Assembly (NCBI GenBank): GCA_965649765.1
Contig: OZ287757.1
Location: 31,682,001-31,746,000 of the forward strand
DNA: 64,000 nucleotides
Origin: Bispira polyomma
Lineage: Eukaryota
Direction: 5' to 3'
Shown: positions 23,862 to 28,461 of the stretch, one piece after another
How the letters are laid out: every line of letters starts with the position of its first letter
Numbering within the stretch: the stretch's first letter is position 1
Made by a program: the position numbers and the translations under genes
Notes under the pieces: generated by a model
What the model saw: the letters and a program-made list of their open reading frames with translations, nothing else
Database searches by the model: none
What the model was told of the DNA's origin: nothing

Positions 23862-24880
23862 ATGCCTCCACTTGTTAATTGCTCCAAATGTTTGGGAAAG
23901 CATGCCCGTCCGGTAGGGGCGGGTTGTTTGTATACTGGGGAGGTTTCACAAGCTTCTGCCGAGGCCCTCGCCGAGGAGGAGGACACGTCTGATGCCATAG
24001 CTCTGGAAGGTAATGTGGACCAAATTAATAGTCAGATTTTGCTCCAGTTACAGTCCATGAGCAATATGATGGAAAGAATGGATCGGCGTGTCCAACTCAC
24101 GGAGGCGGCATTGGCGGGAGAACGAGCTCAAAATCAGGCTAGTACTTCTATTACCAGTAATGTCCCGCCAGTCATTGATACTGTAGTTGCTGCGAGTGCA
24201 CCCGAAAGTGTAGTGCCCACCATAGATTTCTTGAAAACTAATGCACAGATTCAGACACAGGTCGAATTGCGTTTGGCAGATCTAAAACGGTTGAATGAAG
24301 GCCCCACCCAAGGTAAATTGAAATCCCAAAGGGGGGGGGGGGGGTTGATGTTATAGTAAAACGGATAGTTGAATGGCCTCAGAATCATGTACTTACAGGC
24401 ACTGCTCGTTCTAGGCCTACATATGATGACTTGTCGATGAGTCAATGGGTGTGTGGTTTCCTGCGAATTGTGCAAGCTGAAAAGTCAGAGTCCATAAGGG
24501 AAACCATGCTTGAATACATGGCGAACCTGATGGAGGATTCGGAGGACTTTTCGTGGGAAGCTGCCAAAGCGTGCCATGCGGTAGTCCTTACCCACATGGA
24601 AATGGACAAGCTATCTTGGACACAAGTCGACAAACTCGACAGGCTCCGAAGAGCACACGCCCAGCGTCACGTCTCAAACTCTAATTCAAGTCACAGTTAC
24701 TTTGGTCGGGCCGGGGCCAGAAATAGTACCTCGGCCAGTAAGCAGGGCACAGCCAATTGTAAATTCTTCCAGGATGGCTCATGTAAATTTCCAAACAGCC
24801 ACAAAACGGGCAACACATATTTTAAGCATGTCTGTGATTCGTGTGGGGGCACACACAAAACCAGTAGTTGTAACAAAAAA
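23862..24880 (+). CDS. Gag-like ORF1 of YR-E, with one frameshift in a G14 run (24331-24344)
   Basis: ORFs 23862-24356 and 24431-24964 together align with the intact gag 3979-5028. Confidence 0.85.
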
Positions 24881-24900
24881 GTGCCCACTGCAGCAATGCA

Positions 24901-27453
24901 GTGGGGAATCGTGTTTGGACTAGAGAGATTTACAGTTCTAAATTTCAGGAATTTTATTTGTTAGATAAATCGGTGGCACGAAAAATGCTTTTGTATAATA
25001 GAGGGAAACAGACGCGCTGTTCCTACAGCGAGGCTGTTCAAGGTGTACATAGTAAAGGTAACAGTGTAAATGCTTGTAGGGTCATAAAAGCTACAGGTGT
25101 GAAAATGTGTACAAAGATTAACAATAGTGTTAAAATGTCAGGTCAACAGTTGCCTTTGTCCACAGTAAACACTCACAGGCAACAGGTCATTTGGGACGGA
25201 GGTGTTAAGGGCCTCTATAGAAATGCCCCCTCTTTGGTTTTGGCCGCGCAGAAGACTCATTGTGATTTTAAACAAAAGGAAATAAAAGATGCAAGGGCTA
25301 CAAAGCCCCACCCAGTCAAGGAAATTAAAAGTGTCAACCATAACAAGGGCGTCTCACTACAGAATCGATTTCTGCCACTTAGCCAAACCACTGTTGTACC
25401 TGCTGACAACAATGGGGAGGGAGAGTGGCCGGCTGACCCCCTTTTCAAAGCAAAAGACACTGAGCTTGATTATGTGGGCGTTAGTTCAGCAAATACTTGT
25501 GTAAAAAATTCCAATCCCATAATCGTGTCTAAGAAAACACTTGATACTACTGAGACCAGTGACAATGAATCACAGCAGGTAATACAATCTATTTCACACA
25601 CACCTGCGATTAAAGAAAGTGTGGCCACCATGGACTGCAGTGACAAATATTCACTCGAATTGAAACAAAAGAAAAATAAAAGGGAATTGTTGGTTAAAGC
25701 CAAATATGATAGTACATATAACGCATGGCGCTCCCAGAATAATGTTCAGTATGGCTTCACTCCCCTTACTACATTAGGAAAACGAGTAGTGGACAAGGGC
25801 GATACTAATCACGGCCTTAGCATTTTTCAAATGCATAATAAATTACGGCATGATGGCAGACACAATTTTAACGGATTACAATTGGCTGTAAAATCCCAAT
25901 TAAACTCTGACCAATGGGGAAAGTACCTTAAAGACTATTGGGATTGGCAAATACCCCTTCTTGTGAAGTATGGCTTTCCATTGGATGTGAATCGTAAGAA
26001 CATTGACCAATCACAAAAGTGTAATCATAGTTCAGCCAATGAGTATCCCGAGCACGTTGAAACGTACTTGAAGGACGAATGTAAATTCGGTGCAATTCTT
26101 GGACCTTTTAATGAATCACCAATCAATGAACTGCACGTGTCCCCGATGATGACTAGAGACAAATCGAGTTCTGCCAATAGGCGGGTAATAGTGGATCTTA
26201 GTTGGCCCCGGGGCCAATCAGTTAATTCAGGGGCGTCGGCCTCTTCTTACCTTAATACAGAATTTTTACTGTCCTACCCCTCCATTGATAACATAACCAC
26301 TGACGTCGTAAAGCTTGGGAGGGGGTGCTTGTTGTTTAAGGTTGACGTCAGTCGCGCGTTCCGTCACGTACCGATTGACCCTGGTGATATTAATTTACTT
26401 GGACTAAGCTGGAACGGCTTCTATATTGATAAGTGCTTGCCGTTCGGTTATCGGAACGAAAGTACCATTTTTCAGCGTTTGTCGGACGCTGTAAGATTTA
26501 TAATGAAGGGGGAGGGATTTAATATCCACAACTACATCGACGATTTTCTTGTCGTAAATTTGCCTACTAAAATCACTACTATTTATAATCGATTGCAAGC
26601 ATTACTGAGTGAGCTTGGTCTCACCATCAGTCCCAAAAAATTGGTTCCGCCCAGTACCAAAGTTGTGTGCTTGGGCATTCTCATAAATACAGAGGACTTT
26701 ACCACCTCTATACCGGATGAAAAATTGCATGAAATCAAAGAGAAATGCTTAATGTGGGTGAAAAAAATATACTGTACCAAACGGGAACTGCAATCGTTAT
26801 TGGGTTCCTTGCTTTATGTAGCCAAGTGCGTCAAATATGCACGGGTATTCCTGAACAGGATGCTGCAGCTATTGCGCGACAATTGTGGAAAAACTAGGTT
26901 TAAGATTACCCCGGAATTTCGCAAGGACTTGCAGTGGTTTCATGTGTTTCTTAAACAGTTCAATGGGGTATGTTTTTTCTCTCATCAGCCCGTACATGCC
27001 CAGGTAGAACTAGATGCATGCCTCACAGGCATGGTAGGTATCTGTGGTAATCAGGTGTACAAATTGATAATCCCTGAACATATGACTGAAGATAATATTG
27101 CCTCCCTTGAGATGCTTAATATTCTGGTAGCACTAAAAATCTGGTCTGCCTCCTGGCAAGGACAAAAAATCCTATTTAAATGCGACAATCAGGCTGTAGT
27201 CACTGTATTGGAATCTGGCAGAACACAAGACCCCACTCTGGCCTTGTATATGCGAAATATCTATATGTGGGCTAGTCGCTTTGACATTGAAATAAGGGTG
27301 GTTCACATCTTGGGTGTTAAAAATAAAATTGCTGATCTCCTTTCACGATGGCATAAAGTTCCTAACAATAATCAGTTGTTGCCTCAATGGGCTGGCCCAG
27401 TAAAGTGGCTTAATGTTAATGCCACTTTCTTACACTTAGATCATAGTATATAA
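24901..27453 (+). CDS. Reverse transcriptase/RNase H (pol) of YR-E, 850 aa open
   Basis: KVDVSRAFRHVP, CLPFG, YIDD and CLGI (RT); LDAC, LEMLN, KCDN and NKIADLLSR (RNase H). No protease, integrase or methyltransferase motifs seen. Confidence 0.95.
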   Translation: MGNRVWTREIYSSKFQEFYLLDKSVARKMLLYNRGKQTRCSYSEAVQGVHSKGNSVNACRVIKATGVKMCTKINNSVKMSGQQLPLSTVNTHRQQVIWDGGVKGLYRNAPSLVLAAQKTHCDFKQKEIKDARATKPHPVKEIKSVNHNKGVSLQNRFLPLSQTTVVPADNNGEGEWPADPLFKAKDTELDYVGVSSANTCVKNSNPIIVSKKTLDTTETSDNESQQVIQSISHTPAIKESVATMDCSDKYSLELKQKKNKRELLVKAKYDSTYNAWRSQNNVQYGFTPLTTLGKRVVDKGDTNHGLSIFQMHNKLRHDGRHNFNGLQLAVKSQLNSDQWGKYLKDYWDWQIPLLVKYGFPLDVNRKNIDQSQKCNHSSANEYPEHVETYLKDECKFGAILGPFNESPINELHVSPMMTRDKSSSANRRVIVDLSWPRGQSVNSGASASSYLNTEFLLSYPSIDNITTDVVKLGRGCLLFKVDVSRAFRHVPIDPGDINLLGLSWNGFYIDKCLPFGYRNESTIFQRLSDAVRFIMKGEGFNIHNYIDDFLVVNLPTKITTIYNRLQALLSELGLTISPKKLVPPSTKVVCLGILINTEDFTTSIPDEKLHEIKEKCLMWVKKIYCTKRELQSLLGSLLYVAKCVKYARVFLNRMLQLLRDNCGKTRFKITPEFRKDLQWFHVFLKQFNGVCFFSHQPVHAQVELDACLTGMVGICGNQVYKLIIPEHMTEDNIASLEMLNILVALKIWSASWQGQKILFKCDNQAVVTVLESGRTQDPTLALYMRNIYMWASRFDIEIRVVHILGVKNKIADLLSRWHKVPNNNQLLPQWAGPVKWLNVNATFLHLDHSI

Positions 27454-27475
27454 TGTATTTATATTTGTGTTATAG

Positions 27476-28461
27476 CCTCTCACCCACTGGATTTACTGCT
27501 GACAGGTCGAGCCTGTAAGAGGCTCCACTCTGCTTTTGCGGCTTCTACAGCTCGGGCCTATGATAATATGTTCAGAGTCTTCCTTGCTTTCGGGGCCTTC
27601 ATGGCTTGGTCCCCCACCCAGGTGACTGTACTTAGACTTTTATGTTTTCTAGAATTTCTGAACTTTAACTCAGTATCGGCCACGCAAATTGCTAACTACT
27701 TGTCAGCAGTGAAAGCCAAATGTATTTTGTATCACATAACAGTGGACTGCTTTGCAGACCCCCGAATCTCATATTTTACTCGTGCTCTGGTAACTCATAG
27801 ACCACTCCAGGTAAAACTCAAGAGTATATTTGATATTCCTCTTCTTACAGCCCTGGTAGCGAAGTGTGACAATACCTACATGGGTCAAATTTTTAAAGCC
27901 GTTTACCTTACTAGTTTTTTCAGTTTCCTAAGATTGTCCAACCTTTGCCCCCATTCCATGGCAGGTTTTTCTCCCACAAAACATCTTGCTAGGGGTGATG
28001 TTCTCTTTAAACCAGGTTATGTAATGCTACTGATCAAATGGTCAAAGACCTTGCAGACAAATAATGCCATTAGATTAATAACTATCCCTGTCATCCCGCA
28101 GTCTAGTTTATGCCCGGTCACGGCCATTAGAAACGTATTAGCTTTATCCCCCTCTGGTACTAATGCTCCTTTATTTCAGTACAAAGCCACCAACACTTGG
28201 GGCCCTCTTACAGACACTCGGGTCAGGCGACATTTAAAAAATGTTCTGCAGCTGCTGGGCTGTCAGCAGGCGAATCTTACTTTTCATGCGTTCCGACGTT
28301 CGGGTGCCACCTTTGCGTTTAATAACAACGTCAAGGTGCAAGACATTCAACGTCATGGCACCTGGACGTCGGACTGCGTGTGGAGATATATAACGGACTC
28401 TGCTTTTGCTGGCTCCCAGGTTGCGGATTCTTTTAGAAGTGCTCTACAGTCCAACTCCTAG
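27476..28461 (+). CDS. Tyrosine recombinase of YR-E (intact; first ATG 27568, homology starts at the predicted acceptor 27475/27476)
   Basis: FLRLSN, KWSKT, HAFRR, HGTW and VWRY give the R-K-H-R-H/W-Y catalytic set. Confidence 0.93.

Follow-up and report, generated by a model that had tools for sequence, protein, structure and literature searches.

Conserved splice signals point to a Gag-recombinase fusion in Ngaro-type retrotransposons of Bispira polyomma

The 64,000 nt stretch of Bispira polyomma DNA described here (assembly GCA_965649765.1, contig OZ287757.1, positions 31,682,001 to 31,746,000 of the forward strand) is referred to below as the window, and positions are counted from its first base. 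It is part of a 58-Mb contig in a 1.04-Gb assembly and contains at least seven retrotransposons or their remains, belonging to several families, with the gene order gag, reverse transcriptase/RNase H (RT/RNase H; pol) and tyrosine recombinase (YR). A preliminary description of the window proposed that the recombinase is translated from a spliced mRNA that joins the N-terminal part of Gag, Gag(N), to YR. Conserved DNA signals in these elements and their diverged relatives indicate that this is very probably the case, with a donor in a glycine codon of gag and an acceptor just past pol that both cut in phase 1. In the element YR-E, the proposed exons of 451 nt (23862-24312, no stop codon) and 986 nt (27476-28461, terminal stop only) do join, as had been claimed, into 1437 nt encoding an intact protein of 478 aa plus stop with a full recombinase. 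The proposed intron is 3163 nt, begins with GT and ends with AG, and the junction codon specifies Ala. It follows from such a splice that Gag(N) would supply the start codon of YR.

Under this proposal, one transcription unit would give three proteins by three routes. Unspliced RNA would be translated into Gag, from a reading frame that is observed to begin with ATG, and recoding at the end of gag, by a -1 heptamer or with pol opening straight after the gag stop, would give Gag-Pol. A fraction of the RNA would be spliced by the host spliceosome, from the phase-1 donor in mid-gag to the phase-1 acceptor just past pol, with removal of the C-terminal half of Gag and all of pol to leave Gag(N)-YR. 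A middling donor would let most of the RNA stay unspliced, to serve as genome and as the Gag/Pol message.

Sequences and Sampling

The sample consisted of 92 loci of this genome, which were hand-picked in descending order from four ranked search lists and are not a census, and 28 metagenome contigs from other organisms. Clustering at 80% YR identity gave 45 lineages; a usable YR start is present in 39 of them, whose identity in YR ranges from 22 to 78% (median 35%). Loci L001-L030 (4-kb loci lacking gag, partly refetched at full length) were left out, 12 of the 28 metagenome loci had no usable YR start, and 38 of the 120 loci had no gag anchor. The tree holds loci of this analysis only, with no named Ngaro references. 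Splice-site weights were set by hand from general knowledge and were not trained on this organism, and in L118, L124 and L125 the frame-blind pick of the donor scan is not the homologous site. The pol/YR overlap was scored in 95 loci, with 13 of 108 unscored.

The Donor Site in gag

The glycine column was found in a Gag peptide alignment made blind to the DNA, and was compared with 14 conserved glycine columns of gag, pol and YR as controls. Where the residue is glycine (28 of 29 aligned lineages) the codon is GGT in every case. At the control columns GGT makes up 163 of 485 codons (34%), all four codons are used freely, and the commonest codon never exceeds 52%. Because third positions are thus saturated between lineages, the third position of the gag glycine is constrained as DNA. 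The constraint extends to both neighboring codons. Of the 25 lineages whose preceding residue allows a codon ending in A, 24 have one (about 12 expected), and that codon is xAA at each of the seven donors in the window. The following codon starts with A in 28/28, encoding Lys (19), Asn (5), Thr (3) or Met (1); the Thr codons are all ACG (3/3, against a background of 11%) and the Lys codons are AAG in 11/19 (background 35%), both of which favor G at +5. In L132 and L133, a very distant pair, CTG|GTGAGT is found in phase 1 at a like place.

Among donor-like columns of the alignment the gag glycine is the most conserved, being present in 13/14 and 21/28 lineages, the next best reaching 8/33 and 8/39. 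Its donor score is among the top three of 213-301 GTs in eight of twelve lineages.

The preliminary description listed seven gag donors in the window, and all are where it placed them (Table 1), each an AG|GTAA that cuts a GGT glycine codon in phase 1. Its remark that the next residue varies was also correct, with Asn at the 54752 donor and K, N, T or M among relatives while the DNA keeps G|GTA. The nucleotide-level constraint and phase match that it saw in a few copies hold far beyond the window, in the 28 lineages above and at the acceptors of 33 of 39 lineages (see below). Random glycine codons and acceptor phases in a larger alignment, which it had named as an outcome against a splice, are therefore not what is seen.

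The Acceptor Site Upstream of YR

A scan blind to frame placed the best acceptor in phase 1 in 68/92 genome copies, 13/16 loci of other organisms and 33/39 lineages (P about 6e-11 against an expectation of 1/3, and 2e-6 against the 47% share of phase 1 among all AGs in the interval). A phase-1 YAG lies at the identical offset in 81/92 genome copies. The sites are of the type TTNYAG|G; among 38 lineages, T is found at -6 in 35 and at -5 in 34, C at -3 in 29 and G at +1 in 28, and the preferences at -6, -5 and +1 were not imposed by the search. A T-rich stretch with C at -3 and G at +1 is typical of 3' splice sites. The junction residue differs among copies, and the YR frame is closed by an in-frame stop no more than 15 codons upstream of the acceptor in 62/90. 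A fingerprint of the acceptor at the protein level was present in 13/14 external YR open reading frames (ORFs), and as it is loose and has no control it was not counted.

All six acceptors given in the preliminary description exist at the positions reported. Those ending at 7065, 9816, 27475 and 61871 are in phase 1 and lead directly, in an open frame, into the N-terminal segment conserved in YR, and the one at 15765 is off by one base, as had been noted. The acceptor at 48103 is a weak case; it is in phase 1, but within a few codons YR is interrupted by a deletion that reaches to the HxxR region, so that the site is in frame only with a C-terminal remnant of YR.

In one locus (L064, oriented positions 7340-7400), a deletion that ends at the acceptor AG has fused pol to YR in frame.

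Expression of Gag-Pol

A heptamer A AAA AAC is found in the gag frame near the end of gag in 10 of 27 representatives, and pol is open in the -1 frame in seven of these ten; an eighth case of -1 gag-pol, L056, has no heptamer. In 6/27 representatives pol opens directly after the gag stop. The two arrangements occur in related clades, the -1 heptamer being found in L037, L065-L068, L119, L120 and L141, and the direct opening in L086, L108, L116, L124, L125 and L137. No conserved acceptor precedes pol in 15 loci, the candidate sites differing in place and phase. An acceptor-like column inside pol (19/37 lineages, phase 0) coincides with a conserved Leu-Gln pair and was discounted as a probable effect of the codons there. 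From these patterns Pol looks to be recoded rather than spliced, and YR to be the only spliced product in this clade.

The Two Parts of the Predicted Fusion Protein

Exon 1 encodes a knuckle, CxxCxxxHxxPxxxxC, in which C7, C10, H14, P17 and C22 are invariant in 13/13 aligned sequences. A structure model of Gag(N) places helices at residues 49-93 (long), 121-126 and 128-145, with a predicted template-modelling (TM) score of 0.24 and no fold match; the donor falls just after the last helix. Across relatives, the proposed fusion would keep about 130-200 residues of Gag. The Gag proteins of L139, L140, L142 and L144 have no knuckle.

The model of exon 2 has a predicted local distance difference test score of 90 and is helical from residue 3. 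It matches whole Cre/Xer chains over about 320 columns (E values of 1e-8 to 1e-6; TM score of about 0.6 for Cre), and a sequence search of the PDB gave no match at E 0.1. The catalytic residues R, K, HxxR, H and Y are invariant columns of the YR alignment. Since the model is helical almost from its first residue and matches whole Cre/Xer enzymes, the exon boundary appears to coincide with the start of the folded enzyme, just as the Gag(N) helices end at the donor. The first Met of YR-E exon 2 is residue 31; because it lies inside helix 2 of the model, a start there would cut into the folded recombinase.

The knuckle and long helix of Gag(N) could co-assemble YR with Gag, Gag-Pol and the complementary DNA (cDNA), or could help to choose the target site; reasoning from these features, the odds that Gag(N) has such a loading or targeting role seem about level.

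Alternative Routes to the Recombinase

Several observations weigh against a spliced fusion. The donor of YR-E scores only fourth among the 242 GTs of its own element, the branch motif YTRAY is not enriched (9/38 lineages, against a background of 20%), and the most distant loci (L139, L140, L142 and L144) have a phase-1 acceptor with no homologous donor found. No intronless copy was present among 31 donor-acceptor pairs, which have gaps of 2500-5288 nt, the best 40 matches per side having been scored and 9/40 donors left unpaired. A Gag(N)-YR protein was absent from three protein searches, a weak negative as the matches look like uninterrupted-ORF calls: Gag(N) as query had 0 matches among 3650 longer candidate proteins; a YR profile matched two of 8000 scored proteins of 402-2000 aa (P0121 and P0122), both of them RT-YR; and a Gag(N) profile gave 631 matches, with YR in none of the best 150. 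The best 120 YR homologues reach 379 aa at most. Relatives were also sought in viral contigs, and there were none among 75 pattern matches. Finally, a -1 frame with a short overlap is the commonest pol-YR layout (41/95 loci, 14/34 lineages), and an in-frame ATG lies upstream of YR in 22/90 copies and within five codons downstream of the acceptor in 20/90.

The frequent -1 overlap accords with the published view of Ngaro elements, a probable -1 frameshift where pol and YR briefly overlap (Poulter and Butler 2015, as quoted in the available part of PMC13003380). YR would then be made as a Pol-YR or Gag-Pol-YR polyprotein, by frameshifting in the overlap or by readthrough of a stop, and the splice-like motifs would be incidental. 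In 17/95 loci, including YR-E, pol and YR are in the same frame with a single stop between them, and the two RT-YR proteins (672 and 861 aa) have the fused form expected, although they may be accidents similar to the L064 deletion. Against this, a canonical slippery heptamer occurs in the pol/YR overlap of only 5/95 loci, another 13 loci are in the +1 frame, and 24/95 (by majority, 12/34 lineages) either lack an overlap or have two or more stops, which precludes both a frameshift and a single readthrough. The frame of YR relative to pol is 0, 1 or 2 in 27, 15 and 47 of the 92 genome copies (3 unscored) and changes across the tree, while the acceptor phase does not; in loci whose pol end is intact, pol-YR spacing is anywhere between -63 and +334 nt. 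With neither frame nor spacing nor slippery sites conserved, YR cannot in general be reached from pol by frameshifting or readthrough. Such a polyprotein also leaves the 28/28 GGT codons and the TTNYAG|G pattern unexplained, and a recoding signal is plainly visible at the gag-pol junction, where recoding is likely. A polyprotein origin for YR is accordingly judged very unlikely, but Pol-YR frameshifting could be a minor second route in the -1-overlap lineages.

A shade less probable again is translation of YR by itself, from its own ATG or a non-AUG start through an internal promoter or internal initiation, with the gag GGTAAG binding U1 merely to protect the long RNA. Exon 2 alone is a complete recombinase, the nearby in-frame ATGs counted above could serve some copies, and in an Arabidopsis Copia element U1 at the donor is described as preventing premature termination (available part of PMC5580714). 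No ATG position is conserved, however. There is no Met until more than 12 codons past the acceptor in 32/90 genome copies and 13/15 other loci, and L100, L108, L122, L126, L137, L143 and L144 have none in the first 50 codons. The earlier statement that no ATG precedes the YR segment is right for the copies in the window but not for all relatives. Nor would an independent start account for an acceptor pattern at a fixed place and in a fixed phase equal to that of the donor.

The least probable of the three is that the acceptor is real but is joined to some other exon, be it a short leader exon carrying an ATG, a leader added by trans-splicing or exons of the host, and that YR has a short leader only. 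A short leader joined to an acceptor is a known pattern in env-type genes, and the acceptor is kept more widely than the donor, as in the four distant loci above. Yet the 5' leader, taken as the 300 nt ahead of the knuckle in 12 lineages, contains no strong donor that is conserved, the gag glycine is the only conserved donor column and its phase matches, and trans-splicing of a leader offers no reason for phase to be conserved.

Anatomy of YR-E and Its Relatives

The features of YR-E and the splice sites of the other window copies are given in Table 1. Siblings of YR-E elsewhere in the genome are 76-99% identical to it. In full-length relatives, the split direct repeats are arranged A1-ORFs-B1-A2-spacer-B2. 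YR-E has no A2-B2, and its positions 28476-28585 match B2 of L038, the match being cut by the end of that locus; AATAAA hexamers are present in its B1 at 28528 and 28965. Many copies, including YR-E, stop at B1 without A2, spacer and B2, as recombination between B1 and B2 would leave them. The spacer was measured in two copies (L038, 9125-9786; L100, 8831-9588, oriented), where it is about 660-760 nt and has no long ORF. YR-E sits in a high-copy repeat (23400-23588 and 29039-29200), and contigs that join about 23573 to 29039 represent the empty site. Three sequencing runs (at most two samples, one study) cover the region evenly and look like DNA, so that they do not bear on expression; of their 61 joints, the 15 listed include none between 24312 and 27476.

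Table 1. Features of YR-E and splice sites of other copies in the window.
Feature	Position	Strand	Basis or remark
YR-E element (ends at end of B1)	23589..29038	+	six siblings align 23586-23589 to 29038-29046
5' split direct repeat A1	23589..23744	+	matches A2 downstream of YR in sibling L038
Proposed coding exon 1, N-terminal 150 aa of Gag: knuckle, long helix, terminal helix pair	23862..24312	+	open frame, 451 nt, phase 1
Putative splice donor AAG|GTAAAT, GT 24313-24314, phase 1, in conserved Gly codon	24310..24318	+	GGT in 28/28 lineages
G-run just inside proposed intron; gag frame shifts here	24331..24344	+	length varies among siblings
C-terminal part of Gag, out of frame with Gag(N), inside proposed intron	24317..24964	+	ORF list, tblastn to other copies
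pol ORF, inside proposed intron	24874..27453	+	RVT_1 E 5e-11, RVT_3 E 2e-6 (Pfam)
RT	~26287-26676	+	Pfam
RNase H-like domain	~27109-27351	+	Pfam
T-rich tract and putative acceptor TTATAG|, AG 27474-27475, phase 1, 22 nt past pol stop	27455..27475	+	
Proposed exon 2, complete tyrosine recombinase (R, K, HxxR, H, Y motifs)	27476..28461	+	open frame, 986 nt
3' split direct repeat B1	28476..29038	+	in siblings B1 extends to A2 start
Donor of another copy, GT 1927	1924..1932	+	
Donor GT 4451 to acceptor AG end 7065, second element	4448..7065	+	phase 1 both ends
Acceptor of decayed element	9800..9816	+	phase 1
Donor GT 13016 to acceptor AG end 15765, decayed element	13013..15765	+	acceptor off by one base
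Donor GT 51313 to acceptor 48103	48103..51316	-	YR internally deleted
Donor AAG|GTAATT (Gly-Asn), GT 54752	54749..54757	+	
Donor GT 57380 to acceptor AG end 61871, divergent element	57377..61871	+	phase 1 both ends

The gag frame of YR-E shifts at a 14-base G-run after the donor and the heptamer of its siblings is absent; YR-E therefore cannot make full-length Gag or Gag-Pol, while both proposed exons are still open. The claim of a spliced YR mRNA is supported by the conserved DNA signals, but the copy chosen to illustrate it is broken outside both proposed exons. The length of the G-run differs among very young siblings (L031-L040), and in 8/9 siblings gag loses its frame there, exon 1 being untouched; this variation may reflect slippage, assembly error or a regulatory G-run. 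In the 71 loci with both donor and acceptor, both exons are open in 23, and gag stays open past the donor in 11 of these.

Classification and Window Content

In YR-E, gag, pol and YR lie in that order on one strand, and there is neither a DDE integrase nor a protease. Pfam searches with the element proteins gave only RT, RNase H-like and a weak Phage_integrase match; no methyltransferase family was detected in pol up to E 0.1, and pol stops about 33 residues past the RNase H match. Both pairs of split direct repeats were found in 19 of 80 loci (9.9 kb each) and a single pair in 10 more, the other 51 being truncated copies or having repeats beyond the fetched stretch. The order gag, RT/RNase H, YR, with no methyltransferase and with split direct repeats, defines Ngaro elements in the available parts of PMC4157794, PMC3266345 and PMC8547959. 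The window elements are Ngaro-type YR retrotransposons (order DIRS), assigned from structural marks alone, and structure alone may mislead in classifying YR elements (available part of PMC4157794). A DIRS1-like identity was rejected, as full copies carry direct and not inverted repeats and the methyltransferase is absent. The repeats would fit a PAT-like element but the methyltransferase is again absent, and a PAT lineage that has lost its methyltransferase may be an alternative.

A first look at the genome gave about 13,500 candidates in 1.04 Gb, or fewer than one expected per 64 kb. The window has at least seven YR elements, of which six are plus-strand, and so is enriched several-fold by this rough measure, perhaps through nested targeting or as a silencing cluster. 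One element has a 580-codon open frame with internal repeats between its gag and RT (57807-59549); this frame has no match in Pfam, and the gag-to-RT leader reaches about 2 kb in the clade of this element (L111-L115). In the pol leader of the minus-strand element (49657-49968) is a 39-nt tandem repeat, a whole number of codons, and a duplicated block with 11-, 17- and 28-nt satellite-like repeats (11625-12395 and 17644-19084) flanks the decayed element YR-D.

Significance and Comparison with Known Systems

The expression of DIRS-order recombinases has so far been assumed and not demonstrated, and the YR ORF often lacks a start codon. If the splice is real, it supersedes the frameshift proposal in this clade, alters how a very abundant class of repeats is annotated, and tells biochemists which recombinase protein to express. 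The working enzyme would then include part of Gag, a point relevant to how an element with no protease brings its integrating enzyme to the cDNA and picks targets. A phase-matched splice is also a precise claim that one RNA-seq alignment can test. A broader proposal is that a wide Ngaro-type clade makes its recombinase only as spliced Gag(N)-YR, the Gag knuckle and helices loading the particle and steering target choice, and the spliceosome controlling integration apart from reverse transcription; this is conceivable, but we would put it at somewhat below an even chance. In Cafeteria Ngaro elements, ORF1 appears to set the integration-site preference (available part of PMC8547959), which fits a targeting role and would be explained by a spliced Gag(N)-YR having one.

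No account of spliced YR expression was found in the literature, with earlier mention possible in the founding Goodwin/Poulter work, Repbase notes or supplements; it is not described in the available parts of PMC9341512, PMC7192593, PMC6681497, PMC13003380, PMC9210276, PMC4157794, PMC8547959, PMC3783388, PMC9940879, PMC3266345, PMC5890265 and PMC2632668. These elements are of a known kind, with an apparently undescribed and widely conserved route to their recombinase. They resemble published Ngaro elements in ORF order, the missing methyltransferase and the split direct repeats, but differ in having splice signals where a frameshift was proposed for YR, and in the spacer between A2 and B2 seen in the two copies measured. 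In fungal Ngaro elements YR is reported in the same frame as pol or in a shifted one, with no explanation given in the available part of the paper (PMC3783388).

Exon 2 shares its fold with the Cre/Xer tyrosine recombinases at a sequence identity of 12-17%, and we know of none of these made as a Gag fusion. In retroviral and gypsy env, and in foamy-virus pol, the 3' gene is reached by removing gag-pol as one intron. The RNA logic of the comparison with env drawn in the preliminary description therefore fits, but the product does not: env and foamy-virus pol mRNAs keep at most a short leader, whereas here the predicted protein retains about 150 Gag residues in YR-E and a similar segment, with knuckle and helices, in its relatives. 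A conserved splice in Arabidopsis EVD (Ty1/Copia) sets the protein ratio through a short Gag RNA (available part of PMC5580714), but it yields extra Gag alone, not an integrating enzyme fused to Gag. Closest among described mechanisms is the SD' RNA of murine leukemia virus (p50/p60), in which a donor in gag is joined to an acceptor near the end of pol, placing N-terminal Gag in frame with integrase (available part of PMC1936429). The viral product contains no more than the final 116 aa of integrase, an enzyme that is also made from Gag-Pol, whereas exon 2 here encodes the whole recombinase, for which there seems to be no other conserved route.

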